Source of the DNA: Pseudobdellovibrionaceae bacterium
Lineage (GTDB): Bacteria; Bdellovibrionota; Bdellovibrionia; Bdellovibrionales; Bdellovibrionaceae
Assembly: GCA_044359815.1 (NCBI GenBank)
Contig: JBIKLL010000034.1
Span: 1-26,019, forward strand
Reading direction: 5' to 3'
Length of the DNA: 26,019 nucleotides
A program made the translations under genes and the position numbers. The notes beneath the pieces are model-generated. The model worked only from the letters and a program-made list of their open reading frames with translations, did no database searches and was not told the origin of the DNA. Below, piece by piece: positions 1-15,253 of the stretch. How positions within the stretch are numbered: position 1 is the first letter of the stretch; every line of letters begins with the position of its first letter.

Positions 1-165
1 TGTGTCATTTATATTAATCAGTTTTACGATTAATAAATTATCATAAACCTGATTAATATAAATGACACAACACCAGATATGCCATGCGCGCTCGCAAATG
101 TATTCTCAAGATGTAAAAATATAAAAATATTTTTGGATACAGTTTTTAAAATTTTCTTTTGCAGA
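1..165. repeat. Modular palindromic element, copy 1 (5' part outside the window)
   Basis: 21-bp perfect inverted repeat 1-21/49-69, followed by core half B' CAACACCAGATATGCCATGCGCGCTCGCAAAT (68-99) and GTATTC (100-105), as in the copies at 2814 and 13632. The right boundary is approximate because the partner arm is outside the window. Confidence 0.85.
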
Positions 166-175
166 TCTTGAGCGG

Positions 176-1132
176 CTAGATTATCGAGAGGCCGGCGGTG
201 ATGGCTTTTGAAAGCCAGCGTGCTGGCTTCAGGCTGCTGCGGTCTTGGGTCAGGTAACCCAGGTGTCCACCGTGGTTTTCGATGTGCAATAATATATTGG
301 GATTTGATTTAGCATTTAAATAAGGTTCCCAAGTAATAAATGGGTCATCCTTGGTTGTTACCAATATAGTGGGCACTTCGATCTGATCAAAGCTGTTATA
401 AGTTGAGCATTTGCGGTAATAATCTTCGGCACTTTTAAATCCACCCACAGGCGCTGTGTAGATTTGATCGATGTGATGCAGACGTGTAAAAAGTGGGAAC
501 TTAAAATCCTGATCAGTTAAAAGCTTGCGGTGTTTGATGTCCTGTTTGCACAGTCTAACAAATTCGTAATCGTAAATACGGTTTAATCCGGTGGTTAGTT
601 TTTTGCTGCATGAACTCAAATCCACTGGAGCATTGAAGGCCATGGCAAAATCCGGCTGATGTTGGCCACGGATTTTTGTTAACAAGGTCAGCAGTGCATT
701 AGCCCCTAACGAAAATCCCACAGCAAATATTTTTTTATGTGGCTGGTGCTGTCTTAAATAATAAATCACCTGACTGATGTCTTCGCCCCGACCTGAATGG
801 TAAGGATTTTTGGCAAGCCCCTTGCCCAATCCACAGCCGCGATGATTCACCAATAAAACCGAATGGTTTTTTTTAAGAGCTTCAATGGCCGTCATTTGCA
901 TGTAAATGGATTCAGCACTGCCAGTCAGGCCATGGAAGGCGACTGTGATAATCTGTGATGAACCCTGATAAAAATGCCCAACCAATGTATCGCCGTCGGG
1001 TAAGGGGATTTTAATAATTTCGCCCCGATTTTTTAGTTTTTCAGAAGGTAGAAAAAATCCTAACAGCGTTTGTTTGTGACCGCCATGAGCCCATAAAGGG
1101 GGATTGCAAGGTTCAATTGAAAGGCTTTGCAT
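176..1132 (-). CDS. YheT-family alpha/beta hydrolase
   Basis: Motifs GHKQT, HGLTGS, NHRGCG, nucleophile elbow GFSLG, acid DDPF and GGHLG His. Confidence 0.9.
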   Translation of the reverse strand: MQSLSIEPCNPPLWAHGGHKQTLLGFFLPSEKLKNRGEIIKIPLPDGDTLVGHFYQGSSQIITVAFHGLTGSAESIYMQMTAIEALKKNHSVLLVNHRGCGLGKGLAKNPYHSGRGEDISQVIYYLRQHQPHKKIFAVGFSLGANALLTLLTKIRGQHQPDFAMAFNAPVDLSSCSKKLTTGLNRIYDYEFVRLCKQDIKHRKLLTDQDFKFPLFTRLHHIDQIYTAPVGGFKSAEDYYRKCSTYNSFDQIEVPTILVTTKDDPFITWEPYLNAKSNPNILLHIENHGGHLGYLTQDRSSLKPARWLSKAITAGLSII

Positions 1133-1161
1133 TTTAATTTTTTAATGACTAAATTGCCCCT

Positions 1162-1836
1162 ATGTCTACAGCTAAAAATTATTGGGATAAAATACACAGT
1201 GAAAAACCAAATTCAGACGGACCCTCTGAATTATTAAAATCCATGCTGCCCAGGCTGCAAAAGGGCAAGGTCTTGGATATCGGTGCAGGGCTTGGCAGAA
1301 ATTCAGTTTATTTAGCTAAAAATGGATTTCAAGTCACTGCAGTTGATATTTCCACAGTGGCAATCAATCAGATCAATCAATTGGCGACACAGAACCAAGT
1401 TTCCATCGAATCCAAGGAAGTCGACATGGATTTTTTTATGATGGGTTTAATGACCTATGATTCGGTGGTGATGACAAATTTCAAACCACCGCTTCCCAGA
1501 TATTATAATGAAATCATCAGGGCACTAAAACAGGGTGGAACCTTGTTGGTTGAATCCATGATGGTGCAAGAACAACCTGAAGCTTTGGGTCCAGAGGACG
1601 CTTACAAAAATTATTATTTTAATTCTAACGAACTGATCAAAGATTTCGCAGGACTAAAGTTTTTGTATTATCACGAGACTCTGATTGACGGAAAGCATGT
1701 GGTTCAATTGTTAGCGCAAAAGCCATTGGATAAAGACGCTGCAAAGTATAATTTATTTGATATGAGCAGTGGATCGACAGAAAAACCCAAGGACCGTCAT
1801 CGCGAATTGGCCGAGAATCTGTTTAAAAAAAGCTAA
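1162..1836 (+). CDS. Class I SAM-dependent methyltransferase (TehB-like)
   Basis: SAM motif I VLDIGAGLGRN, VTAVDIS, and LKQGG post-motif. Confidence 0.85.
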   Translation: MSTAKNYWDKIHSEKPNSDGPSELLKSMLPRLQKGKVLDIGAGLGRNSVYLAKNGFQVTAVDISTVAINQINQLATQNQVSIESKEVDMDFFMMGLMTYDSVVMTNFKPPLPRYYNEIIRALKQGGTLLVESMMVQEQPEALGPEDAYKNYYFNSNELIKDFAGLKFLYYHETLIDGKHVVQLLAQKPLDKDAAKYNLFDMSSGSTEKPKDRHRELAENLFKKS

Positions 1837-1943
1837 AATTATTTTTACCATTCTGATTCATTGATGTCCCCAGTCATAGAGTTTTTCAGTCGCCTAGACC
1901 AAGGATCGGAAGATTTTAAGTCCTTAGAACCGATAGTAAATTA

Positions 1944-2856
1944 ATGAATTTTCGATCTACACACGTACGAACTGATATGTTTTTGAGTCTGCACACTATC
2001 GTGTCTGGCTTGATGATTTTGTTTGGTTTGGGATTTTTTTTGCATGGGGCAAAGCTGGCTGGGTCAATTATGTACCTGGATCTGATTTGCCTGTGTCCGT
2101 TAATTTATTATTTAGAATCTAAAAATCATAATTCCTTGGCCAGGTATTTATTTATCACCATGGCGCTGATTGGGGCCGCGGCTGGTAAAGTTGGTCTCAA
2201 GCAAGACGTTAACGGAGAATACTTTTTTATCTCGATTATGATGGCTCCGATTTTGATTTTTCACTACAAAGAAAAATTTCAGATTCTGATCGGAATGGCT
2301 CTACCGGTTTTAGTTTGGTCGGTGACTTTTGCAGAAATGATCCCAGTGTTTGATGATCATTGGTATCCGGTCAATTTTCCCTATCAATTATTTAACGGGT
2401 TAGATTTCTTGGGTGTCAGCATAGTGACTGGATTTTTTCTGTACCGATTTAATTCTGATCTGTCGTTGATGTCTGAAAATCTGGCGCAGGCAGCCTGCTG
2501 ATATTTCGCAGATGATCGAAGAAAGCATAGAACTGTGCAAAGAAAAAATTCGATTTAATTCTATTGATCTGCAGGTTGATTGTCCCATTGGTTTAAAAAT
2601 CGATTGCAGATCAGGACAGATTTCGCAGGTGATTTTGAATCTGATTGGCAATTCCATTGATGCCATTGAAAACAATGCAGACAAATGGATTAAAATCCAA
2701 GTTTCTAATGTGGCAGAACAGGTCCAAATCTGTGTCACAGACAGCGGTTTGGGAATCTCGGCAGAAATCGCCACAAAAATGCTGCAGCCATTTTTTACTA
2801 CCAAAGAAGTCGACCACTTTGTTTTTTTAAATATTTCTTTGTTTTATACCTTTTGA
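1944..2856 (+). pseudogene. Disrupted membrane sensor histidine kinase (TM sensor 1944-2501; HATPase_c fragment about 2491-2813)
   Basis: A multi-TM N-terminus ends NLAQA. The second frame has the N box QVILNLIGNSIDA, G1 box DSGLGI and F box PFFTTKEV. There is no HisKA H-box, and the G2 box is replaced by the palindromic element starting at 2814. Confidence 0.75.
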
Positions 2857-3198
2857 ATACCCGCTAACGGCCACAAGCTCATCTCTCGTATTGCATAAAT
2901 GCAAAAGTAATTTGTTTTTACTGTTTTTAGACACATTCAGCGAGCGCGCGGGGCATATCTGGTGTTGAGTCATTTAGATCAATCATTTTTATGATAATTT
3001 ATTAATCGTAAAAATGATTGATCTAAATGACTCAATACGAGAGATGAGCCCGCGGCCGTTAGCGAGTGTCTAAAAATAGTGAAAAAAATTACCTTTGTAT
3101 TTATGCAACACCAGATATGCGGCGGTAAATTAACCGTCGCGCTCGCTGGATGTATTCAAAAGGTATAAAACAAAGAAATATTTAAAAAAACAAAATGG
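2814..3198. repeat. Modular palindromic element, copy 2 (double, nested; two cores in opposite orientation)
   Basis: 43-bp perfect outer arms 2818-2860/3152-3194; A 2861-2893; imperfect ~43-bp arms 2891-2934/3066-3108; B 2935-2967; 27-bp perfect arms 2965-2991/3009-3035; A' 3033-3065; B' 3106-3151. Confidence 0.95.
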
Positions 3199-3207
3199 CA
3201 GATCTGA

Positions 3208-3642
3208 TTAGGAAGCTTTGATTCCCTGGTTCATCAAGACCTCCAGGATGTGGGCTCTTGTGACGATGCCATGCAGTTTGCCGCCACCATCTGTGACGTA
3301 AACTCGCTCGATGGGATTCATCAAAAACTTTTTATAGACATCGATAAACAAATCAGATTTTTTGACAGTGATCAGTTTTTCAGTGGGGATCAGTTTCTCC
3401 ATACATTGGCCAATTTTTTTATCAAACCCATATTGGACCACCAGTCTGAGCAAATTCCCCTGACTAATGACGCTCACGATTTTGTTTAAACTATCAACCA
3501 CAGGACCGCCAGAAATTTTTTTGTCCTTAAGGGTGTTGATGGCTTCTCGGATTGTCATTAGCTGGCTAACCGAAATGACCTCTGCATTCATAAAAGTCTC
3601 GACAGGTATTTTATTGATTTCGGCACTTAAAATATCGCTCAT
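3208..3642 (-). CDS. CBS-domain pair protein
   Basis: Two CBS repeats: VETFM..ISGGPVVD..IVSVIS and IERVYVTDGGGKLHGIVTR. Confidence 0.85.
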   Translation of the reverse strand: MSDILSAEINKIPVETFMNAEVISVSQLMTIREAINTLKDKKISGGPVVDSLNKIVSVISQGNLLRLVVQYGFDKKIGQCMEKLIPTEKLITVKKSDLFIDVYKKFLMNPIERVYVTDGGGKLHGIVTRAHILEVLMNQGIKAS

Positions 3643-3676
3643 GATAAATCCTTTTGATTAAGGGTCTAGATAATTC

Positions 3677-3703
3677 TTATCGGAATCTTAATAAATTTTA
3701 TGA
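3677..3703 (-). promoter_or_regulatory. Putative sigma28 (FliA) promoter of the CBS gene
   Basis: Minus strand reads TCAT-N15-TCCGATAA against the consensus TAAA-N15-GCCGATAA. Confidence 0.4.
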
Positions 3704-3871
3704 CCCAGAAATTTGTCAGGATTTCTTATGAAACTGTATCAAGAAAGCCCTCTGGACATTGGTGTGGCTGTAACAAATGTCAGTCGATTTGAGGGCTAAA
3801 TAAATTGATAATGGTGAAAGCGTACCAGTTTAAATCAAGGATTCGATGATCCCATCATCAGGAGATTTTTT

Positions 3872-4651
3872 TTGCGACTTTTGTTTTGTCTAAACCTGAT
3901 ACTGTTTTCAGCTATGGCGATGGCTGCAGAATGGGATCTGGAACAAGGCTGTCAATCAATGGGGACCTGCAACTGGGTCAACAATAAAGCCAACAGATTC
4001 AGATATGAATTCAATCGACCATTTACCAATCATGCTGACTGTTCCCTATCACAATTTATTGAAACCTACGGGAAGTTTCCTTGCCCAGGACAGATGACTT
4101 GGGTGTGCAGCACGAAATACCAAGTGAACTTTTGCATAGACACAAATTTGAGGGAAGACCTTTGGGGGAACCCTGACGGAAACTTTTCGCGCAATCGTTG
4201 TCAGAGTTTGTGCCAAAGCCAAGGCTACGATCTGCCCACCAATAATGAATGGTTGGTGGCAGCCAACGGCACCCAATTTAAAGACTGTGATATTAATATT
4301 CCCAATCCCTGTGCATCCGAAAATTATTCCAACGAATGTCTTAAGCGAAATTTTAATTACATTCCTGGGTCAGTGCTGCGGCCAAATTGTGTTTCAAACT
4401 TTGGAGTTCGCGATATGGTTGGTGTGTTGGGGCAGTGGGTCCTGGAAACCCATGAAGGCAATGGATGGAAATCTGCAAAACGATTTGATCAGGCACCAGC
4501 CCCCAGGGGGTTTTTTAATGGGGGATTGTGGCCGCAAAAGTATTCGACGGTGTTTTATCAGACCAGGGCCCACGGGATACATTATGGGGACTATTCTATT
4601 GGTTGCCGGTGTGCGAGTATGACCCGAATCAGTGCTGTTAGGGACAATTAG
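3872..4651 (+). CDS. Secreted Cys-rich FGE-sulfatase (SUMF1/CLec fold) domain protein
   Basis: Signal peptide and AGGAG SD. Motifs CQSQGYDLPTNNEWLVAA, NFGVRDMVGVLGQWV and SIGCRC correspond to the family motifs RLPTEAEWE, DMxGNVxEW and GFRC. Confidence 0.75.
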   Translation: MRLLFCLNLILFSAMAMAAEWDLEQGCQSMGTCNWVNNKANRFRYEFNRPFTNHADCSLSQFIETYGKFPCPGQMTWVCSTKYQVNFCIDTNLREDLWGNPDGNFSRNRCQSLCQSQGYDLPTNNEWLVAANGTQFKDCDINIPNPCASENYSNECLKRNFNYIPGSVLRPNCVSNFGVRDMVGVLGQWVLETHEGNGWKSAKRFDQAPAPRGFFNGGLWPQKYSTVFYQTRAHGIHYGDYSIGCRCASMTRISAVRDN

Positions 4652-4724
4652 TCACCAAAATTAATATACATTCTAAGTCTCAAAGCCCGATGTTAATATT
4701 TGGTTATACATACCGGAGGTATTT

Positions 4725-4928
4725 ATGAAAAAGAATGTTCATCCCATCGAAAGAATCATCAGAGTGGTAGTTGGTGTGGGTTTGATTTCAATGGCCTTTG
4801 TTGGCCCAGCAAATCCTTTATTTTTTTTAGGGGTTGTCCCATTGCTGACAGGTCTGATGGGCAGCTGTCCGGCTTATACGATTTTTGGCTTTAGTACCTG
4901 CAATTTGGGTAAAGCTAACACCAAGTAA
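4725..4928 (+). CDS. DUF2892 (YgaP-like) small membrane protein
   Basis: MKKNVHPIERIIR..G..LLTG...CPAYTIFGFSTC signature and a GGAGG SD. Confidence 0.9.
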   Translation: MKKNVHPIERIIRVVVGVGLISMAFVGPANPLFFLGVVPLLTGLMGSCPAYTIFGFSTCNLGKANTK

Positions 4929-4969
4929 TTGCTATTCTAAGTCTGAAATTATAGTGCTACTGTTTAAAC

Positions 4970-5251
4970 ATGAAAATTCACGTAGCTCATATTTTAGTGC
5001 AGCATAAGTACGAAGCCGAAGACCTGGTAAAAAAACTGAAATCAGGTCAGGCCTTTGAAACTTTGGCTCAGAAATATTCAGTTTGCCCCTCTGCAAAATC
5101 AGGGGGCGATTTAGGATGTGTCGAAGAGTCTCGTTTAGATCCAGATTTTTTAGAGACAGCCAAAGTCTTAAAAATAAAGGAAGTATCAAATCCAGTCAGA
5201 ACCCGGTTTGGTTATCATCTTATTAAGAAGCTATCTGATCCTGGATCTTGA
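4970..5251 (+). CDS. ppiC: Parvulin-type peptidyl-prolyl cis-trans isomerase
   Basis: Motifs HILV, FETLAQKYSVCPS..GGDLG and PVRTRFGYHLIK; single-domain, 93 aa. Confidence 0.9.
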   Translation: MKIHVAHILVQHKYEAEDLVKKLKSGQAFETLAQKYSVCPSAKSGGDLGCVEESRLDPDFLETAKVLKIKEVSNPVRTRFGYHLIKKLSDPGS

Positions 5252-5281
5252 ATAATCTGCAGATATTTCAGACAATAGGGT

Positions 5282-5755
5282 ATGAAAACCCTGAAGGTCG
5301 AAGTTCAGAAATTTGGAAACACTTGGATCTATCATTTTTTTGGTTATTTAAACGAAGACGCAAAAATCCCTTTGCTGGATGATTCTCAGGTATCAGATAT
5401 ACAATTGAATCTGGAAAAACTGTCGCGGATTAATTCAGTGGGAATCAGAACCTGGTTTAAGTTTACCAAATCCATCGGCCCCCAGGTGTCAGTGCAATTA
5501 AGCCAAGTCCCCAAAATTTTGATTTTACAAGCCAACACAGTCAGTGGATTTTTTCCTAAAAACAGCCGGATACAAACATTCGAAGTGCCCTTTATCTGCG
5601 AAAACTGTGATGTGTCTGAATCCCTGTATTTTACCCCCGAGCAAACCCAGAAGGGTGCAATCACGCCCCCAAAATGCCGTAAATGCAAAGCCGACATGGA
5701 ACTAGACGCCATTGCCGATATGTATTTTAGGTTTTTAGACAGTTTGGGTAAATAG
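5282..5755 (+). CDS. STAS/anti-sigma-antagonist-like protein with C-terminal CxxC..CxxC
   Basis: LNLEKLSRINSVGIRTW resembles the STAS phosphoserine loop; CENC and CRKC pairs. Confidence 0.65.
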   Translation: MKTLKVEVQKFGNTWIYHFFGYLNEDAKIPLLDDSQVSDIQLNLEKLSRINSVGIRTWFKFTKSIGPQVSVQLSQVPKILILQANTVSGFFPKNSRIQTFEVPFICENCDVSESLYFTPEQTQKGAITPPKCRKCKADMELDAIADMYFRFLDSLGK

Positions 5756-5867
5756 TCCTTACGGATTTTCTACATCCTAATATGGCCCTTATTGATTTAA
5801 TACAGCCTATCCCTGATAACAGTGATCGATAATTATTTTTGCTGTCAATAAACCCTTCGGAGCCTTT

Positions 5868-6293
5868 ATGAAATCATTTGTTGTTTTTGCCCTTACAGTT
5901 TTGGTTTCCGCCACAGTTTGGTCTGCGCAAAATAAATGTGTTCAGTTTAAACCCAATTTTTTACAATCAAAAAATATCAGAACTTTTATAATTGCGACTC
6001 CGGTAAAAACCTCGTCTAAAAAATCAGCCTTAGTTCGTTTGATCGTTCAGGATTCGGGTGTCCTGGATAATGATGGCTATGTTAATTGTGAACACGTAAA
6101 AACCAAATGGCATTGTTCGATTGATGATGACGGTGGAAATTTTGAATACAATTCTGCAACTCTTGAACTGACCACCAGTTATTTTGATGTTGGAAATATT
6201 GAATCAGATGCTGATGGTTCTATCGAAATACCAACTCACCAACCCTTTGTACTGCAGGGCAAGCGGATCCGCTGCCCCAAAGCAGACTTTTAG
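5868..6293 (+). CDS. Secreted hypothetical protein
   Basis: Signal peptide, GGAG SD and four Cys. Confidence 0.7.
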   Translation: MKSFVVFALTVLVSATVWSAQNKCVQFKPNFLQSKNIRTFIIATPVKTSSKKSALVRLIVQDSGVLDNDGYVNCEHVKTKWHCSIDDDGGNFEYNSATLELTTSYFDVGNIESDADGSIEIPTHQPFVLQGKRIRCPKADF

Positions 6294-6491
6294 TTTCTAC
6301 CATCTGATTAATTCACAAGTATTAAATTAGTTTTTAAAACCACTAGATCAGACCCTTTCCCAAAATTGACATCTATCTGTGATTTCTGTCAGGTCCTTTC
6401 GTTGTAAGGTTTTGTGACCAAGGATAACTTTGGTTTCAAGATTAAACACATAAACGAAGCTTAAATTACTAAGCTTCAAGAAAGGAAACTT

Positions 6492-6986
6492 ATGAAAAAT
6501 TTAATCGTTACACTAGCTACTGTTTTTGCTGCTTCTTCTGCTATGGCCGTTGATGGTCCGTTGTGGAGCTGCGACCTGAATGCGAAACTGACTGGTAAAG
6601 AAGTCGGTTTGGTATTGGCTACTAAATACCTGAAAGGACCAGGCACACTGTCATGCACAACAGTGGATGGATCCCGAGAAGCTAACATTCCTGTGAATGT
6701 TAAAATCAAAGGCTTGGGATTAGGCCTTGGTTATTCGGTGACTGAAGAAATTGACATGATCGCAATCGGTGTTGGATTAGTTAAAAACCCAATGGTTTTA
6801 GCTGACAAATACGCACTGGGTTTATCAGCAGGTGTCACCTTGATTTCTAAGGGCGTTGAAGCTGACGTTGCTTTTGCAGCTAGCGGCCGTGGCGGTTTGG
6901 GTTTTGAATTTGGTCTGATTGGCAAAGACGCAAAAGGTTTCTCGGCCAGCGTTCAAATCCAAAATATGCACATCACAGTTCGATAG
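6492..6986 (+). CDS. Secreted Gly-rich beta-strand hypothetical protein
   Basis: Signal peptide ending AMA, AAGGA SD, and a downstream terminator. Confidence 0.75.
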   Translation: MKNLIVTLATVFAASSAMAVDGPLWSCDLNAKLTGKEVGLVLATKYLKGPGTLSCTTVDGSREANIPVNVKIKGLGLGLGYSVTEEIDMIAIGVGLVKNPMVLADKYALGLSAGVTLISKGVEADVAFAASGRGGLGFEFGLIGKDAKGFSASVQIQNMHITVR

Positions 6987-7030
6987 GCTTTCTAAGCTTG
7001 AAATTTTGTTAGGGGAAGTTCTGTTTCGTC

Positions 7031-7062
7031 AAAAGCCCGGCTTTAAAAACCGGGCTTTTTTT
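7031..7062 (+). terminator. Rho-independent terminator (possibly bidirectional)
   Basis: AAAAGCCCGG-N9-CCGGGCTTTT with a T7 tail. Confidence 0.85.
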
Positions 7063-7119
7063 CCATTTTCAGGGGTGCTTTTAAATTTTGTATTGTGTGA
7101 ATTTCGATAAACACTTAGA

Positions 7120-7584
7120 TTGCGCCTTATGAACGCTCAATACATTCTGGGACAAAAAGTCAATTTAGTCATTTTACGCAAAACCGATTTAGGTTTTGTG
7201 GCAAAAATCAATCAGGTCGATGAAGGGCTTTTGTATCATTCGGAAATTTTTGAATTATTAAGACCTGGTCAGGAATGCCCAGGCTACATCAAAAAAATCC
7301 GCGAAGACGGAATGATTGATCTGCAGTTGCAACCCTTTGGCAGTCTGGGGGCCAAGGAACACGGGGTCAGGATTTTGTCAGAGCTGACCCGCCAGGGTGG
7401 GTTTTTACCGATCAATGACAAAACCTCGTCAGAAATAATCCATAAATTATTTGGCCTTAGCAAAAAGAAATACAAAATCGCTTTAGGTGGGCTTTATAAG
7501 GCCAAGCAGATCACAGTCAATTATGACGGGATCAGACTAGTGACAACACCTCATGACAAAAATGTTTACTGGAATTTAGATTAA
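7120..7584 (+). CDS. CvfB/YitL-like S1 plus winged-helix RNA-binding protein (short form)
   Basis: TDLGF..GLLY, GYIKKIREDG.IDL and FGLSKKKYKIALGGLYK match the CvfB C-terminal half. The start may be the ATG at 7129. Confidence 0.8.
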   Translation: MRLMNAQYILGQKVNLVILRKTDLGFVAKINQVDEGLLYHSEIFELLRPGQECPGYIKKIREDGMIDLQLQPFGSLGAKEHGVRILSELTRQGGFLPINDKTSSEIIHKLFGLSKKKYKIALGGLYKAKQITVNYDGIRLVTTPHDKNVYWNLD

Positions 7585-7665
7585 TTTTTTATTTCAAGGC
7601 CCTATCGGTCGAAAATAAAATTCTTAACTTTGATGAATGAAGTTCTAACATCCTAGAGCTTTTGT

Positions 7666-8190
7666 TTAAGCAGAAATCTCGCAGCATTTTTTAAATTTTT
7701 TGCCACTGCCACAGGGGCAGGGATCATTGCGGCCGACCTTGGGTGCAGCTCGAACCACTGTTTGTGGTTTTGCTTGATGGGGGTTTTCGCCCTCGTTGTG
7801 AGTGTGGGATTCGCCGTCCACAAAAACCCAATGGCCTTCATCATTTTTTTTAAACTGACTGACCTCGTGGTGATCTATTGTTTGGCTGTCGACTGTGTAG
7901 GTGGCAATAAATTCAACCATGCCTTTTGTGTCGCCAGATTGCCCGTTTTCAGTTTTTAAAATCTTAAGGCCCTTCCATTTTGATTTTTTGGCCCATCTGA
8001 GTGTGTCTGCAAAATCAAAATCGGATTGGGATTCGTGGGCCAAAGTGCTTTTTAAATATTTAACTTCGGTTTTAACAAAAGCCGTGTACCTGGAGCGCAT
8101 CAATTGTTCAGCGGTGGTTGGAAAGGCGCTTCCCATAATAAAGGGTTCGCAGCAGTTTTGATATTCTGATCCAGATCCGCATGGGCACAT
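7666..8190 (-). CDS. ychJ: YchJ (UPF0225) family protein with SEC-C motifs
   Basis: N-terminal [39 protein letters not shown], and C-terminal [20 protein letters not shown]. Confidence 0.9.
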
Positions 8191-8361
8191 ATAAAGTCCT
8201 TGGTTTTTATTTAATCAGCCAACTGGTTGACCTGATCCATGGAATCATAATCCCAGCCAAAGGTCCAGACCTTATGTTTAAGTCCCTAAAAACTCTGTCA
8301 ATTAAAGCCTGCATTCGTAAAATCAAAAGGGGTTCATTCAATACTTAAGCACGGAGGGACA

Positions 8362-9231
8362 ATGTCATTAGTTACAAAAATTTTAATAAGTGGATTTATT
8401 TTGTTAGCCAGCGGGCAAACTGAAATGCACAGATCAAATCACCATTGCCAGGGATTTATGCCAGAAAATGATTTGTGGATTGGTGTTGATGATAAAAATG
8501 CCGGCGGAGTTTCTGAACAACAATTTAACGATGTGCTCAATAAGCTAGAATCTATTTATAGTCCTATCATCCAAGCCAAAGGCGGCACACTGGTGATGAG
8601 CAAAAATTGGACTGACGGTACTGTGAATGCTTCGGCTTCGCGTTGGTGGAACAGTTGGTACGTCAATATGTTTGGTGGAATGGCCAGGCACCGGTTGATG
8701 ACGTCTGACAGTTTTGCAGTGGTTGCCTGTCATGAACTAGGTCATCATTTAGGTGGCATCCCAAAAATCAGCGGATGGATGAACAGTTGGGCATCGGTCG
8801 AGGGCGAGGCAGATTATTTTGCCACACTCAAATGTCTGAGAAAACTTTTTGCAGATGAAGACAATGAATCCGTTGTTAACAATATGGAAGTAAAACCCTT
8901 AGTCAAAGAATCCTGCGAACATCAACACACAGATCGGGCGTTGCAATTGATTTGCATCCGTTCAGCCATGGCATCTGAGCCTTTAGCACAACTGTTGGCC
9001 GAATTAAGAGGCGATGGAGTTCCTGATTTTTCAACACCAGATGGATCCAAAGCCAGCAGAACGGTGCAATCACATCCTCCGGCGCAGTGCCGATTGGATA
9101 CTTATTTTAACGCCAGTGTTTGCACAGCGGATTCAAATCAAGACCTTAGCGATTCAGAACTTTATGTGGGCGCTTGCAAATCAGATGTGCAACCCAGTGG
9201 TGCGCGACCACTGTGTTGGTTTGCACCTTAG
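8362..9231 (+). CDS. Secreted zinc metalloprotease-like protein (HEXXH)
   Basis: CHELGHH motif with downstream EGEADYFA and SHP (M48-like pattern); GGAGG SD; signal-like N-terminus. Confidence 0.75.
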   Translation: MSLVTKILISGFILLASGQTEMHRSNHHCQGFMPENDLWIGVDDKNAGGVSEQQFNDVLNKLESIYSPIIQAKGGTLVMSKNWTDGTVNASASRWWNSWYVNMFGGMARHRLMTSDSFAVVACHELGHHLGGIPKISGWMNSWASVEGEADYFATLKCLRKLFADEDNESVVNNMEVKPLVKESCEHQHTDRALQLICIRSAMASEPLAQLLAELRGDGVPDFSTPDGSKASRTVQSHPPAQCRLDTYFNASVCTADSNQDLSDSELYVGACKSDVQPSGARPLCWFAP

Positions 9232-9237
9232 ATTTAT

Positions 9238-9675
9238 TTAAGAATTAAAAAACACAAAATAAAGCAACAGGCTGTGGGCAGACCACAACAGGGTGCGGGG
9301 CCAATTGGTAAACACTAATTTTTTATGCAATTCGGGATTCCAAGTGGTTGCCAGTTTATTGTGAATGGGCACTGAAACTAAAAAGGTTAAGGCAAAGTTT
9401 GCCAGGCTTAGTCCCAACCATAAATAATTAAACTGACTGACCCAAAAGCTGGTTGCCAATTGTAAAATCATTGTGGGCCCAACGACGTAAGTTATTTTGT
9501 TGGAATGTTCTAGATGAAATTCTGCAAAAAAATCAGGGTGAACTTTGGACATTAATGGGTAATGGACAACCTGAATGATCCAAATTACGCCAGTCATAAA
9601 ATAAACTGAAAAAATGTGTAAACCATCGATGTTAATTGGCAGCTGGTTTAAAAATGCAAAACTGTCTGTGTTCAT
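9238..9675 (-). CDS. Integral membrane hypothetical protein
   Basis: About four hydrophobic segments with GVIWIIQVVHYP, VPIHNKL and NWPRT. The start overlaps the stop of the upstream gene. Confidence 0.75.
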   Translation of the reverse strand: MNTDSFAFLNQLPINIDGLHIFSVYFMTGVIWIIQVVHYPLMSKVHPDFFAEFHLEHSNKITYVVGPTMILQLATSFWVSQFNYLWLGLSLANFALTFLVSVPIHNKLATTWNPELHKKLVFTNWPRTLLWSAHSLLLYFVFFNS

Positions 9676-10502
9676 AAAAAATATTTTTCTGGATTTTCAA
9701 AAACCTGTTTGAATTTTTGATTCATGGCAGCTGCGTGGACTCCATCCATAAATCTGTGATCAAAGGTCACACCAATTTTTACCGTGGGCCTGGCCAAAAC
9801 CTGATCATTTACAACTACGGGTCTGGTTTGCACGGCTCCCACAGTTAACAATAGCGGAACCCGTGTAAAGGGTATCAGTGGAGCCCAGGCGACCTCTAAA
9901 CCCAAACTGCCCACGTTGGTAATCATGCAGGATCCAAAAGCGTCTTTGGGCATTCCTGCCCAGGCCATCGAAATCCCTAAATCATAATTTATATAAGCTG
10001 AAATATTTAAAACCCATTTCATCAATGACCAAGGAACCTTGGACAGCACTGAAATTGAATGGGTCAGCTCACCCCTTTGTTCCTGTCTGAGTGCTGAGGC
10101 CTTGGTGTGCAGTTGTTGCGCGATTTCTGTAAGGCTTAGGTTTTCAGCCTGTCTGACTGTACAACCGGTCAATGCAGCAGTGCCCACTGGGTCAGGGGAT
10201 TTGCCAGGTATATTGACCTGATAAAACAAATCCACGTGGGATCTTTGGTAAATTTTGTTACAGCGAATCAGTCCATTGATTTCGGGCCTTTCGGTTAAAC
10301 AAATGGATATGGCTTTACCGACTAAATGGGCAGGAGTGATGTTTGAAAATTGTGCGTGGGATTTTAAAAAATCCAAAGTCTTAGTCATGTCAATTTCGAT
10401 CAATCCGTACACCGAGGGATCGCCCGCATTCCACCAGCTTCCCATGGCAATTTTTCGAAACACGGATTTTGTTTGGCTGACTTTCCAGTTTTGAGCGCTC
10501 AT
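9672..10502 (-). CDS. 2-oxoacid dehydrogenase E2-type acyltransferase, catalytic domain only
   Basis: ITNVGSLG and catalytic TFDHRFMDG; no lipoyl domain. Confidence 0.85.
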   Translation of the reverse strand: MSAQNWKVSQTKSVFRKIAMGSWWNAGDPSVYGLIEIDMTKTLDFLKSHAQFSNITPAHLVGKAISICLTERPEINGLIRCNKIYQRSHVDLFYQVNIPGKSPDPVGTAALTGCTVRQAENLSLTEIAQQLHTKASALRQEQRGELTHSISVLSKVPWSLMKWVLNISAYINYDLGISMAWAGMPKDAFGSCMITNVGSLGLEVAWAPLIPFTRVPLLLTVGAVQTRPVVVNDQVLARPTVKIGVTFDHRFMDGVHAAAMNQKFKQVFENPEKYFL

Positions 10503-10607
10503 CAGTTAATCATTGGTAATACGGATCAAATTAGCAAGACGATAATTCACGATGCAAAGGTGAAGCTTGACTGTTGTTGCTGCTGATCGGAAAACTGGTG
10601 GCCTAAA

Positions 10608-11447
10608 ATGAATCATAAATCTGGAATGCTTTATATACCCAAGTTTTTAAATGCCTCGGACCGCCAGGTGTTTGTCAGTTATTTGACAAGCCTTTATCCG
10701 ATTTGGGAAATGAGATTTTCAAAATCCAATCCTCCACCAGAAAATGAACCCAACCGTCAATTACTAAGACCTGTTTATTGGTTGGGTAATTGGCAATTTG
10801 CTTGTTTAAATTATTATCATCCGCCCAAAGGCATTCAAAATCGCTGTGTGCTGGCAGAAAGCTTTCCAGATTTTATGCAGGCCGTAGTTTCTAAAATCGA
10901 AAGCCTGGTGTTATCGCATTTTGATCAAAGGGATGTTCCCTACAAGTGGCATTTAAATACTTGTTTGATCAATTATTACGGTGATCATTTGGTTAATGGT
11001 AAAAAAACCGATTGCGCCAGGGTTGGCGAACACAAAGATTTTGAACCGGGACCGGTCGCATCGATTTCGTTTGGCGAAAGGGCCATGTTTCAGTTTGTGG
11101 AAAGCCGGTCCAAGGCTGACCAAAGCAAAGTGGTACAGCAAATGTGGCTTGAAGACTGTTCGCTGCAGATTTTTGGTGGCGACAGGTACAAAAAAAGACT
11201 GTTTCACAGGGTTCAACGGGTTGAGCGAAAGCTGGGTCAGCTTTTTACCACAAATACCGATGGCTTTGAAACCCGCAGGATCAATCTGACTTTTAGGTTT
11301 GTGCCCAGGGACCACATTCAAGAGCTACACAGGTTTCCTGAAAACCTGCAACAAGATGTCGCGCCCTACATCGCACAGCTGGCCAGACAGTCAGAGTTTT
11401 TCAAACTGGCTCAGCATAGCATCAATGCAGAAAAATTTAAAATCTAA
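10608..11447 (+). CDS. AlkB-like 2OG-Fe(II) dioxygenase
   Basis: NTCLINYY, HKD facial-triad start, ASISFG, distal H in LFHRV, and RRINLTFR. Confidence 0.85.
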   Translation: MNHKSGMLYIPKFLNASDRQVFVSYLTSLYPIWEMRFSKSNPPPENEPNRQLLRPVYWLGNWQFACLNYYHPPKGIQNRCVLAESFPDFMQAVVSKIESLVLSHFDQRDVPYKWHLNTCLINYYGDHLVNGKKTDCARVGEHKDFEPGPVASISFGERAMFQFVESRSKADQSKVVQQMWLEDCSLQIFGGDRYKKRLFHRVQRVERKLGQLFTTNTDGFETRRINLTFRFVPRDHIQELHRFPENLQQDVAPYIAQLARQSEFFKLAQHSINAEKFKI

Positions 11448-11572
11448 AGGACTATTCTTATTTAAAAAGGTCACGGCCTCCAGCCTCTGCCGCTCGGGCA
11501 AAGCCCCCGCCATCCATGGCTCCGCGGAGAACCTTTTTAAATAAGAATAGTCCTTTAGATTTTAAATTTTTC
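11430..11572. repeat. Palindromic element type 2: 42-bp perfect AT-rich arms around a 59-nt GC-rich core
   Basis: 11430-11471 is the exact reverse complement of 11531-11572. The core contains the GCCATCCATGGC and GGGCAAAGCCC hairpins. Confidence 0.9.
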
Positions 11573-11686
11573 AACCCTGAGGCTTATGACTAGGTCATTT
11601 GATAAAATCTAAAAAAGATCTGGCGCCACTGTGCATGAATTAGGCTTTAGCTTTAAGAATAAGCAAAAAAGCCGGATAATAAATGG

Positions 11687-12409
11687 GTGCAGACAGAATT
11701 TATATTATACAAAGATTTAAAGATTTTTATTAAGCGAAAGCCCAGGCAAAAAAGGCTTTACCTGTATGTAAAACCAGGCGGGCTGATTTTAGTCTCGGCT
11801 GCAAAATCCACCAGCAGCCCAATGATAAAAAGTTTTGTGGCTAAAAACGAACCTTGGCTTAAAAAGTCTTTGGATAAAATGCAGAATGTTGTGCCAGCAG
11901 AAGTTATTCAGATTTGTGATGGTGCCATGGTATTGTTTATGGGCTCCAGCTACAAATTGTCGGTGCAAAAATCTGGTAAAAATAATGTTTTTATCGATCA
12001 GGCAGCTGCTGAAAAAATTATTTGTATGGAATCCAGAAAAACAGATCCTACCAGTCTGAAAAAGCAGTTACGAGAATTTTATAAAACCAGTGCCGAGAAT
12101 TTGTATCAGGAATTGGTTCAAAAGCTTAGCCGGCATTTGAATCTGAAAATTTCCAGAGTCCGCGTTGCCAACCAAAGATCCCGTTGGGGCAGCTGTTCGT
12201 CAGCAGGTGTGATATCGTTAAATTTGAAACTGATGGCAGCACCTGTTGATTCAATTATTTATGTGGTGATCCATGAGGTATGTCATTTGATCCATCCTAA
12301 TCATGGGCCGGGATTTTGGAAGCAGGTTGAAAAGCTTATGCCCCATTATCAGGTCCACGAAAAATGGCTAAAAGACCACGCACGCGATTTAGATTTTTTA
12401 AATGACTGA
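11687..12409 (+). CDS. YgjP/DUF45 (SprT-like, M48) metal-dependent hydrolase
   Basis: QRSRWGSCS and YVVIHEVCHLIHPNHGPGFW. Confidence 0.9.
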   Translation: MQTEFILYKDLKIFIKRKPRQKRLYLYVKPGGLILVSAAKSTSSPMIKSFVAKNEPWLKKSLDKMQNVVPAEVIQICDGAMVLFMGSSYKLSVQKSGKNNVFIDQAAAEKIICMESRKTDPTSLKKQLREFYKTSAENLYQELVQKLSRHLNLKISRVRVANQRSRWGSCSSAGVISLNLKLMAAPVDSIIYVVIHEVCHLIHPNHGPGFWKQVEKLMPHYQVHEKWLKDHARDLDFLND

Positions 12410-12410
12410 A

Positions 12411-12458
12411 GGTTTTGACCACGTACGGTTTTGGCAGTGTCGGGTTTTGACCGCGTCA
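12411..12458 (+). repeat. Imperfect 16-bp tandem repeat x3
   Basis: GGTTTTGACCACGTAC / GGTTTTGGCAGTGTCG / GGTTTTGACCGCGTCA. Confidence 0.7.
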
Positions 12459-12514
12459 GAAATTTTGAAATTCATTTGTAGCCTAGTGACGAAATTAATC
12501 TTTATAATATTCTT

Positions 12515-13606
12515 ATGGGGATTCTGAAAAATTTAAAAAAATGTCTGCCTATAATTTGGATTTTGATTTTTCCGCTTTCATTGTGGGGGCAGTATTTACC
12601 AGTTGGAATGTATGAAGGATTTTTAGGAAATTCTGGCACTGCGATGACTGACAGCAAGGCCGCCAGTTTTTATAATCCCAGTTTGTTGTTGGAAAAAAAG
12701 GATTCCAGTTTTTCACTGGGTGGATCGACGTTTTCCAGCTACAGAATCAATTCTGCTTTTGGCAGTGAGCGCAGTACGGCCTTTGCCCCCAGTTATTTGG
12801 GTTCAGTGATTGTGGGGACCAATTTAGTCCATGAGTTTTTTTATTGGACAACAGGTGACATCAAGCTGTCGCTGGCTCAGGAATCAGCATCAGAAAATCT
12901 GACCCATGATTATTCCAATTCAGAGTCTGCACTGGGATATTCTATGGCTTTCAGGTCAGTGCCTCTGGCGATGCAGTTTGGATTAAAGTATGCTGAAAGT
13001 CAGAATGATACTCTGCAAATCCTGAAAGACCCCACAAACAATGTGACTGAAACAATTCAATCCCGATCAGAAATTCAAAGTGCGATATTTTTATTTGGGA
13101 TGTCGACCTTTCAAAGATTTGGTGGCTATGGTTTGGGGTTTCAGGTGCAGCCAAACAGGCTTAAGCTTTTTGAAAATAAAAAAATGAACAGCAGATCCAC
13201 CAGACATTCAGGCACCAGCATTGTTGATTCAACTTCAGATGGCGCTGTGCAAAGTTCATTGCCAGGCGTGATGATCAGGATAGGGCATTCGTTCAGAACC
13301 CACAGTCATGAGTTTTTAACAGACACAGTGCTGAATGAAAGCATTGCTGGATCTGATTCCTATAAAACCAGGCAGAGTTTTGGTTATCGATTTATTGGTA
13401 ATGATGTGTGGGAGTATTTTTGTGGCTTGAATCGAGGGATTGGCAAAAATTCTTTGAGTTTTTCAGAAGACCAATATGTGTCCACTGGGTTTTCTTGGCG
13501 AACCAGGGCCTCGCGATCCGCTGTAGGAATCTATTATTCCAAAAATGAAACTGATGTGTTGTTTGAATCCACGGGATTAAATTTTTCAACCGAGTTTACT
13601 TACTGA
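12515..13606 (+). CDS. Putative outer-membrane beta-barrel protein (FadL/OmpP1-like N-terminus)
   Basis: Signal peptide; GNSGTA..D..ASFYNPSLL resembles the FadL hatch NPA motif; aromatic C-terminus (EFTY). Confidence 0.6.
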   Translation: MGILKNLKKCLPIIWILIFPLSLWGQYLPVGMYEGFLGNSGTAMTDSKAASFYNPSLLLEKKDSSFSLGGSTFSSYRINSAFGSERSTAFAPSYLGSVIVGTNLVHEFFYWTTGDIKLSLAQESASENLTHDYSNSESALGYSMAFRSVPLAMQFGLKYAESQNDTLQILKDPTNNVTETIQSRSEIQSAIFLFGMSTFQRFGGYGLGFQVQPNRLKLFENKKMNSRSTRHSGTSIVDSTSDGAVQSSLPGVMIRIGHSFRTHSHEFLTDTVLNESIAGSDSYKTRQSFGYRFIGNDVWEYFCGLNRGIGKNSLSFSEDQYVSTGFSWRTRASRSAVGIYYSKNETDVLFESTGLNFSTEFTY

Positions 13607-13631
13607 TTATTATTTTTAACTTGCCGATTCG

Positions 13632-13900
13632 CTGTGGTTAACTTGAATTTTAAAAAAATATTTCTTTGTTTCTATACCTTTTGAATACTTGCTAACGGCC
13701 GCAAGCTCATCTCTCGTATTGTGTCATGGGGTTATTGATTTATCCCGAATATCAAAAGGTATTTATATTTTACTTTGAAAATCAATAACCCCATGACACA
13801 ACACCAGATATGCGGCGATAAATTAACCGTCGCGCTCGCAAATGTATTCAAAAGGTATAGAAACAAAGAAATATTTTTTTAAAATTCAATTTAACCGCAG
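13632..13900. repeat. Modular palindromic element, copy 3 (single unit)
   Basis: 46-bp perfect arms 13643-13688/13844-13889; A 13689-13721; 23-bp perfect inner arms 13719-13741/13779-13801; B' 13799-13843. Confidence 0.95.
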
Positions 13901-13983
13901 GCAAGCGGGCCAGCTGGTGATAATCTTGTCTGTAAGTTATCGAAAAAAATTTGGTGAAACTGTGGCAGCCTTAAGAAAGCAGT

Positions 13984-14508
13984 TCACAACTCTAATTCAT
14001 AAACCCAATTAAGGCTTTCTGTGGTGGCCAGTTTAAACATTTTTGTACCGATTTTCTTAAAACCACTTTTTTCATAAAACCGAATTGCGGGTTCGTTCAG
14101 GGTATAGACGTTGAGCCATAAGGATTTAAAACCTTGCTGTTTCAAAATTATTTTGGTCTGGTCTAAAACTGCAGACCCGACTCCGTGGCCAGTTTGATTT
14201 TTAAGTAAGTAAAATCTTTCGATTTGAATGGTAGGTGAGTTCACAGTGGGTAGCTCTGGCAATATTGGATTGATTTTGACGTATCCAATAGGATTGTTGT
14301 CTTTTTTAACTATGTAAAATTGAAAGTTTTTGTCATCCAGTTCACTGAATATCTGAGTTTCTGAAAATGCTTTTTCAATGTATTTAAGTCTTTCAAGGTT
14401 TTTTTCTGGCTCGTATATTGAATGAGCCTCCAGCCAAGACTGAGCGCCTATTTTACAAATCAGATTGCAATCACTGATTGATGCTTTAATTAATACTATT
14501 GAATTCAT
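13984..14508 (-). CDS. GNAT family N-acetyltransferase (PaiA-like)
   Basis: IERFYLL..QTGHGVGS acetyl-CoA motif and LWLNV...NEPAIRFYEKSGF. The start is placed at MNSIVL (14508) to avoid overlap with the PAP2 gene. Confidence 0.85.
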   Translation of the reverse strand: MNSIVLIKASISDCNLICKIGAQSWLEAHSIYEPEKNLERLKYIEKAFSETQIFSELDDKNFQFYIVKKDNNPIGYVKINPILPELPTVNSPTIQIERFYLLKNQTGHGVGSAVLDQTKIILKQQGFKSLWLNVYTLNEPAIRFYEKSGFKKIGTKMFKLATTESLNWVYELEL

Positions 14509-14560
14509 AGGATTTCGTATATCCGAACTTTTAGCAGATTTAAAGCCGTGACAATTATTT

Positions 14561-15253
14561 TTAAAATACAAAACTGACCGAGGCACCAGAAAGCTTTCCC
14601 TGTTGGAAATCCAAAACCGGCATGCTTATTCGGTGGTGTTTAAACCCTGCGCGACCGAAAAAAATTCCCAGTGTAGAGCCAGCAACAACATCACTGAGCC
14701 AATGTTTGTCGTCAGCAATTCTGGACAAACCTGTCAGTGCGGCCATTCCCCAAAACGGAAGGGCTGTTTTGATGCCGTAGGATTCTGTCATGCTGGTGGC
14801 CAAGGAAAAAGCTGCCTGTGAATGCCCTGAAGGCATGGATACGTTTTCGCTTTTGTCAGGGCGTTCCCGCCTTATTGAATATTTAAAAACCTGCACGACA
14901 GCTGAGCCCATTAAAAAGCCCTCGGTGGCTGGGATTCCGTTTTTTGGATCCCAATAAATCTGACCGGCCAAGATCAATACTGAACCTTGACCCCAGTAAT
15001 CACCAATACGCGAAACACTGGAGTGCATTTGTTGATTGTTTGTCCAGGAATCCCTGACGGGATTTTCAGTTTGATGAGCCAGGACTGTTAACGCCATCCC
15101 TGTCCCCAATATCCACAGGCCTGTTTTATCAGCAGAGTCCAAAAATGTTTTTTGGGCATGGGTTGGCAAACTGTGTAAATCAATACCGTCTTGAGCCAAG
15201 GCGGCAGAGCCTATAAAAACCAAATGGGCAAAAATCATTAAAATGCGCATCAA
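14561..15253 (-). CDS. PAP2-family phosphatase
   Basis: K..IRRERP, SMPSGHS and SRIADDKHWLSDV motifs. Confidence 0.9.
   Translation of the reverse strand: MMRILMIFAHLVFIGSAALAQDGIDLHSLPTHAQKTFLDSADKTGLWILGTGMALTVLAHQTENPVRDSWTNNQQMHSSVSRIGDYWGQGSVLILAGQIYWDPKNGIPATEGFLMGSAVVQVFKYSIRRERPDKSENVSMPSGHSQAAFSLATSMTESYGIKTALPFWGMAALTGLSRIADDKHWLSDVVAGSTLGIFFGRAGFKHHRISMPVLDFQQGKLSGASVSFVF

Follow-up and report, generated by a model that had tools for sequence, protein, structure and literature searches.

REPINs, the doublets formed by repetitive extragenic palindromes (REPs) that go together with RAYT transposases, are gene-less and extragenic, consist of an inverted motif pair that folds into one long hairpin, are dispersed with a lineage-specific copy number, and form higher-order clusters (Bertels and Rainey 2011, PMC3116915). 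The same traits were found in the A/B′ family, a set of palindromes that we analyzed starting from one window, which here means the whole 26,019-nt contig JBIKLL010000034.1 (C9) of a Pseudobdellovibrionaceae bacterium (assembly GCA_044359815.1; genome of 2.95 Mb, 91% complete). In the following, G-numbers denote the genomes compared, with G000 as the source genome of the window, C-numbers denote contigs, and L-numbers denote loci. Each A/B′ unit consists of an arm, an A half of 31 nt, a variable hairpin, a B′ half, and a second arm. As in a REPIN, this inverted doublet folds into one hairpin, and the family is present in high copy number (90 loci), extragenic, and located mostly downstream of genes. 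However, whereas REPINs carry 20- to 40-nt REPs at their ends (PMC3116915), A/B′ elements have a conserved internal mismatched kernel, their halves are not self-complementary, and their arms are up to 130 bp long and may be mirror copies of the host's flanks. Neither an unpaired GTAG-type tag in the alignment nor a RAYT gene flanked by A or B′ was found. The A/B′ family is a REPIN-like non-autonomous palindromic repeat family with a previously undescribed conserved mismatched kernel.

Other described systems share part of this design. Y1 genes flanked by terminal inverted repeats (TIRs), which form repeat families, are known from TIRtrons and TIRYT genes (Di Nocera 2013, PMC3733652; Quentin 2018 subclass 2.1, PMC6006769) and likewise occur in the order to which G000 belongs; the loose end motif of the A/B′ elements resembles the GGGGWSAS motif of TIR repeats, whereas the accessible sections of these two papers give no conserved internal kernel. 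CGTC-tagged REPs have, like A/B′, a CGTC near a short stem-loop and no known dedicated transposase, but their CGTC is unpaired at one end of an 8–9-bp stem and is followed by a CCA tail (PMC3733652). In A/B′, the CGTC belongs to the paired part of a long rod and is replaced by CATC together with compensatory changes, and the family was not counted among these REPs. The TwoAYGGAY repeats (RF01731; 10.64898/2026.09.22.753630) have a conserved structured tip and an elongated basal stem, undergo large copy-number swings, form doublets, and have no known mover. The A/B′ family differs from them in that it has no AYGGAY loops and its doublets are nested; its best score with the TwoAYGGAY model was 28.3 of the 43 bits needed, and no Rfam family, a match to which would have removed the novelty according to the original prediction, was matched at the gathering threshold. 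Template-switch correction of imperfect inverted repeats (Lavi 2018, PMC5941160) yields compensatory changes without selection and explains the arm-to-arm copying as well as the compensatory changes in A/B′. However, it would erase the kernel mismatch, which persists, and it leaves the dispersal unexplained. The attC sites of integrons are imperfect palindromes with conserved unpaired bases and a variable tip, in which RYYYAAC pairs with GTTRRRY. The A/B′ units share the first three of these features; no RYYYAAC/GTTRRRY pair is present in the alignment, and neither a cassette array nor an integron integrase was found. In the literature searched, which excluded ISfinder and the repeat consensus lists of the cited papers, there was no description of the A/B′ family.

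The core fold and its mismatched kernel

The A motif occurs three times and the B′ motif four times in the window, where the original prediction had placed them (Table 1), and neither motif was obtained in 100 shuffles. The two complete regions of 291 and 391 nt fold better as DNA than their shuffles, with z = −16 and −23, respectively. A and B′ had been described as halves that are not simple reverse complements and meet only when the strand folds. They are imperfect inverted repeats, in that 10 of the final 14 bases of A can pair with the beginning of B′, and the pair is predicted to form a bulged rod with internal loops rather than a branched junction.

Covariance-model searches were carried out with 39 relatives and then with 149 genomes of the phylum, whereby 25–150 candidates were scored per genome; because of this limited number, absence of the core from a searched genome is weak evidence. 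Among the 39 relatives, core matches were obtained in G569 (32), G053 (30), G575 (8), G582 (4), and G408 (1), a few of these matches being reverse-strand echoes, as well as in G009 (4 loci), G044 (13 weak matches), and G051 (1), and among the genomes of the phylum in G140 (1) and G169 (10). These ten other core-carrying genomes all belong to the same order as G000 and come from several related genera. The exact A motif was present in none of 400 genomes, and the viral contigs, phages, and plasmids searched gave no match. Metagenome searches yielded no match in the first and one in the second, and among the matches listed from a GTDB-wide pattern scan, 4 of 36 stretches were real and 32 lacked the fold.

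Constant features across genera are GC[A/G], a short block of variable pairs, and a kernel of 6 bp in which C[G/A]TCTY is paired with RATA[C/T]G and which contains one fixed C.T mismatch; the GC stem under the kernel is conserved as well. The original prediction had called A and B′ nearly invariant. In G000, all but one of 132 A halves and all but two of 127 B′ halves have kept the kernel. Across genera, conservation is limited to the kernel and its underlying stem; the GCTAAC and GCGCTCGC parts are exchangeable, and the arms, the lower loop, and the tip turn over. In G009, G044, and G051 the kernel sits on the lower motif of the sister core-3 family of G000, and the lower loop is thus exchangeable. 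The spacer inside the kernel ranges from 7 nt in G044 to hundreds of nucleotides, and G009 has antiparallel nested doublets of its own. In G044, minimal kernel units also form a tandem array beside a tRNA-like gene (C1:848154–848935; L191, L193), and tandem pairs of such units stand elsewhere in this single-contig genome, which gave no Y1 match.

Of 60 sense rows, which come from 11 genomes and one metagenome contig, 59 retain the C.T mismatch; 13 reverse-strand rows were set aside. In G569 the mismatch is kept in 30 of 30 copies, five of which have compensatory changes inside the kernel: three copies change CGT/ACG to CAT/ATG, as the main family of G000 has also done, and two change the first pair. 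In one kernel pair a series from C-G through T.G to T-A was seen. Covariation scores were 0.48 and 0.54, compared to at most 0.10 and 0.11 for slid pairs; alignments A4 and A7 had been fitted to the model, and this gives the structure an advantage. The combination of compensatory changes with fixed mismatches agrees with the proposal that the folded A/B′ pairing is the functional unit, and the case for function rests on the mismatches, since these survive where the arms are corrected.

Copies, doublets, and flanking DNA

In G000, 132 A and 127 B′ matches were assigned to the 90 loci. The 37 loci at contig ends apart, each of the 53 remaining loci contains both halves, so that the predicted co-occurrence of A and B′ was without exception there. 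Four halves are present in 34 loci, all of which are antiparallel and nested. Their doublet spacings are 46 and 55–56 nt in 30 loci and 102–106 and 117–122 nt in the remaining four, which suggests that two composites arose and that each then spread as a whole. The two units at 2814–3198 form such a nested, antiparallel doublet and do not lie side by side. Eleven older-looking single units with short tips are also present, and in three damaged A halves the break is immediately ahead of one and the same CCGC. Convergent gene gaps hold 34 of 52 loci compared to 411 of 2503 gene pairs overall (P ~1e-14), while divergent gaps hold 3 of 52 loci in G000 and 7 of 57 rows in relatives. Among the relatives the presence of the element is patchy. 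Copies are located at unrelated sites, mostly where genes end. The sites are not shared with orthologs (2 of 11 compared to 153 of 822), which would fit insertion. Overall, the element proved to be dispersed and gene-less and to behave as mobile, as had been suggested.

Four public sequencing runs were compared with window positions 1–14800 on the basis of contigs only. In all four, contigs of unique sequence enter the arms, so that the palindromes are very probably not an assembly fold-back, a possibility that had been named as refuting the model. Depth is many-fold higher over the elements. Among the matches listed, no contig piece spans a whole element, and therefore the nested layout rests on its recurrence. 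Unit 1 is truncated by the contig start. Contig C95 carries an A half with the same 95-nt inner part as unit 1 and a 76-bp arm that is identical to the window arm at 73 of 76 positions, and both arms end at a stop codon. Because of the shared inner part and the arm match, this half is probably the missing half of unit 1. Unit 1 would then probably also sit between convergent genes, in addition to the two copies for which this had been claimed. The C95 join itself looks chimeric; the assembler can therefore mis-join at these repeats, and some of the three-half loci may be chimeric. At 1944–2856 of the window, a membrane sensor frame and a kinase ATPase fragment lie in different frames, and the fragment ends inside the left arm of the nested element. 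The gene therefore looks broken, and the overlap of the element with the cut end of the fragment fits insertion.

In 49 complete units, the arms have a median length of 58 bp and 3.5% mismatches. The original prediction had described them as interchangeable stems by which the core is assembled; however, in G000 the outer arms follow a fuzzy consensus of about 70 bp and are family-derived and self-corrected. Departures from this consensus are present on both arms in 92 of 122 cases (units with more than 10 differences were excluded), as are private, single-copy changes in 4 of 14 cases, in 35 of 41 units. Such paired changes indicate arm-to-arm copying. The relatives have arms that extend to about 130 bp and are unrelated between copies and also between genomes, and at L060 a 126–130-bp arm mirrors the end of the adjacent gene. 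In the flanks 75–115 nt out, inverted similarity exceeded the cross-copy 95th percentile in 17 of 41 units and direct similarity in 2 of 41. Thus, direct target duplication was not seen in the flanks, whereby very short duplications remain compatible with these data. Coding DNA is present in the A-side arm only in 11, in the B′-side arm only in 6, and in both arms in 12 of 47 cases, which gives no clear capture direction. A loose end motif occurs in 50 of 143 flanks compared to 9 of 143 in a control zone, in 38 of 143 at 70–75 nt from the core, and a similar motif is found at 16 of 60 ends in G569. The A/B′ end motif is also shared with 7 core-2 sites. Identity to the consensus is 90% for the arm and 99% for A, whereby the ends are the least and the core the most conserved part.

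Table 1. Positions of the A/B′ element parts in the window.
Feature	Positions	Strand	Remarks
Unit 1, inner hairpin	1–69	+	at contig start; A half missing (probably on C95)
Unit 1, B′ half	68–95	+	
Unit 1, right arm	100–175	+	76 bp; stops at stop codon of hydrolase gene 176–1132 (−)
Nested element, outer left arm	2814–2860	+	overlaps cut-off end of histidine-kinase fragment 2512–2856
Nested element, outer unit A half	2863–2893	+	
Nested element, left spacer	2894–2939	+	46 nt; outer inner-stem and inner-unit arm; pairs with 3064–3105
Nested element, inner antiparallel unit B′ half	2940–2967	−	
Nested element, inner unit tip hairpin	2968–3032	.	65 nt; variable, AT-rich
Nested element, inner antiparallel unit A half	3033–3063	−	
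Nested element, right spacer	3064–3105	+	
Nested element, outer unit B′ half	3106–3146	+	with small side hairpin
Nested element, outer right arm	3152–3198	+	10 nt from stop of CBS-domain gene 3208–3642 (−)
Unit 4, left arm	13624–13688	+	18 nt after gene 12515–13606 (+)
Unit 4, A half	13691–13721	+	kernel left strand 13708–13713
Unit 4, inner hairpin	13722–13798	.	77 nt; variable
Unit 4, B′ half	13799–13839	+	kernel right strand 13807–13812
Unit 4, right arm	13844–13913	+	loose end motif ~13903–13913; then GNAT gene 13984–14586 (−)

Two more hairpin families of G000 are mentioned for completeness. Core 2, represented in the window at 11418–11584, has 54-bp arms, a GC-rich branched tip, and one AYGGAY-type loop; it is present in about 50–60 copies and reaches a weak TwoAYGGAY score of 34.5 of 43 bits. 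Core 6, a fourth small hairpin family with a conserved GC-rich tip, occupies about 9 sites (C30, C33, C58, C75, and others).

Candidate enzymes

For the enzyme that had been predicted to act in trans, no partner gene was found. G000 has a RAYT/TIRYT-like gene (C8:9501–10136; 72.5 bits at a cut-off of 80) that is flanked by its own terminal repeats. These repeats form doublets genome-wide (about 25 long hairpins) and enclose 15 of 18 long hairpins of the sister core-3 family. In G575, 3 of 8 loci end exactly in the repeats that flank its Y1 gene, and ends of this kind were seen at none of the checked loci of G009, G569, and G582. Some of the G575 kernel copies and the core-3 family thus sit between Y1-gene repeats. 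An A/B′ unit flanks none of nine Y1 matches in G000, which is 91% complete, nor any of 18 RAYT-like loci of relatives. A Y1 mover of the RAYT/TIRYT kind is thus only partly supported. Reverse transcriptase (RT), IS110, and DDE_Tnp_1 gave no match in the same 91% complete genome, and a GIY-YIG search returned one 650-aa frame. Two tyrosine recombinases were rejected as integron integrases, since they reached 123.5 and 80.2 bits at a cut-off of 265 and scored best as XerC/XerD.

Beside its one RAYT-like gene, G000 encodes eight 206-aa Y1 paralogs. They were rejected as movers, since their upstream DNA is unlike the arm profile and 5 of 11 carriers are without this family. Within 2 kb of 2 of 10 of these genes there is an orphan end or B′ relic, compared to 9 of 423 control genes, which is a post-hoc and weak difference. 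A multi-copy Y1/HUH family of about 190–210 aa is found on contigs C23, C47, C48, C49, C56, C100, C125, and at C8:23373, as well as on C116 and C123. It has no terminal repeats, often adjoins simple tandem repeats, reaches up to 17 matches in relatives, and was matched to no described subclass. At C56:2378–2630, three tandem decayed B′ halves and a full arm stand 350 bp upstream of a 206-aa Y1 paralog. A multi-copy HNH-type family was also tried and rejected as mover, since 2 of its 12 places have an A/B′ locus or relic no more than 1.5 kb away, which is about chance. Its members, of 400–460 aa with a C-terminal HNH-like motif, are located at C35:422–1780, C19:583–1965, and about ten more places, and one of the genes stands directly 5′ of the decayed A/B′ unit C8:5314–5471.

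Explanations for the spread of A/B′ elements

On balance, the A/B′ element is probably a mobile DNA element without genes, which is non-autonomous, acts in the form of a folded single strand, and would spread as follows. A structure-specific nuclease or transposase would read the mismatched kernel in single-stranded or cruciform DNA and cut nearby, and the hairpin would be inserted elsewhere with no direct duplication of the target. The arms would be equalised by fold-back synthesis or template switching, which would also be able to copy flanking DNA across as an inverted duplication. Insertion into the tip of an existing unit would give an antiparallel doublet that then spreads as one unit, as the one spacing of 30 loci may suggest. 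Long hairpins are destroyed by SbcCD. SbcD was above the family cut-off in none of 24 genomes of the order compared to 8 of 14 controls; the order thus seems to be without SbcCD, and long palindromes could therefore persist. That the mover is an HUH/Y1 transposase of the RAYT/TIRYT kind, which acts in trans or has since been lost, is a guess that we put forward tentatively.

Several observations weigh against this explanation. The repeats flanking the RAYT-like gene were found in none of 143 A/B′ element flanks of G000, and some carriers are without a Y1 gene, which both differ from TIRtrons: neither Y1 profile gave a match in G053, which is 99% complete and has about 30 copies, or in the single-contig genome G044 with its 13 weak core matches. 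RAYT-like genes are present in 8 of 11 genomes with a core match compared to 10 of 13 without one. A comparison of neighbouring genes revealed no gene, for an enzyme or otherwise, that recurs beside the element. The element ends are loose, as the counts of the end motif show, and the contigs of the four public runs contain no empty site, excision joint, or circle, nor any joint that skips an element. Covariation alone is no proof of selection, because template switching yields compensatory changes. Finally, a lagging-strand bias would be expected from IS608-type behaviour, and the orientation relative to the inferred leading strand was 9:11 and 27:27, i.e., without bias.

It might be that the element has no dedicated transposase at all and that repair or replication enzymes of the host are recruited by the kernel, or that the kernel is self-cutting, with fold-back synthesis doing the copying. 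High-copy or near-identical families in G053 and G044 without a detected Y1 gene, the lack of RT, IS110, and DDE_Tnp_1 matches in G000, the loose ends together with inverted flank capture, and the three A halves broken just before the same CCGC would agree with this. However, six mobile-element families were searched in a genome that is 91% complete, transposases can vanish after a burst, and 3 of 8 G575 copies have exact transposase-type ends, so that we regard this explanation as unlikely. A hairpin replicator without its own transposase could also be pictured in which the kernel directs cutting by host enzymes or is catalytic DNA or RNA, the arms are built by fold-back synthesis from adjacent DNA, recombination shuffles kernels, lower loops, arms, and ends like modules, and antiparallel nesting gives each strand one kernel; this, too, seems improbable to us. 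A role as structured RNA of 3′ untranslated regions, similar to TwoAYGGAY, would explain the strong preference for gene ends: the stem would stabilise transcripts or serve RNase III, the kernel would bind protein or be catalytic RNA, and spread would be a side effect. The covariation and the C-G, T.G, T-A series, which fits the A-to-B′ strand, are consistent with this role, doublets would give each convergent transcript one sense copy, and TwoAYGGAY repeats likewise form doublets and vary in copy number (10.64898/2026.09.22.753630). In tandem gene pairs, however, both orientations of the core occur (14:9, in a count that includes some duplicate rows, and 9:5), and this lack of orientation bias does not support the structured-RNA role that had been proposed. 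Moreover, copies are found between divergent genes, wobble pairs are split evenly between the strands (55:49), and neither an Rfam match at threshold nor AYGGAY loops are present, and there is thus little likelihood for the RNA explanation. Of 42 rows, 41 as DNA and 34 as RNA have the more stable fold on the reverse strand, and the commonest tip is a 3-base loop. Action at the DNA level is favoured.

An ordinary miniature inverted-repeat transposable element (MITE), whose ends would be the terminal repeats bound by the transposase of a DDE element, with the core as a mere passenger, would account for the loose end motif at about 70–75 nt from the core, its likeness to the ends in G569, and its occurrence at core-2 sites. 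We consider it very unlikely, since the conservation gradient runs the other way, with the ends least and the core most conserved, direct duplication is missing, the arms are unrelated between genomes, and no gene flanked by the end motif was found in the searched genomes. Least credible are attC-like integron sites or an assembly fold-back artefact, although a TAAC motif after gene ends opens the A half, contig ends account for 37 of 90 loci, and the C95 join looks chimeric. For attC sites, a GTT opposite the AAC is missing, the TAAC varies in relatives, there are no arrays, and the recombinases are XerC/XerD-like; for an artefact, unique contigs would not enter the arms in all four runs, and the same design would not recur in a 7-contig and a 1-contig genome. 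Both are already largely refuted.

How REP-type repeats spread without a cognate transposase is an open question for the CGTC repeats (PMC3733652), as is the mover of the TwoAYGGAY repeats (10.64898/2026.09.22.753630). With the A/B′ family, the signal that is recognised is reduced to a mismatched duplex of 6 bp, which is short enough to be synthesised as a 40–80-nt oligonucleotide and for which the natural compensatory and corrected kernel variants serve as controls, and G044, as a small single-contig carrier without a Y1 match, is a place to look for the partner. If A/B′ is merely a REPIN-like family with a lost transposase, its interest would be moderate. The capture of flanking DNA in inverted form, where a direct duplication would be usual, is an uncommon footprint and suggests fold-back synthesis.

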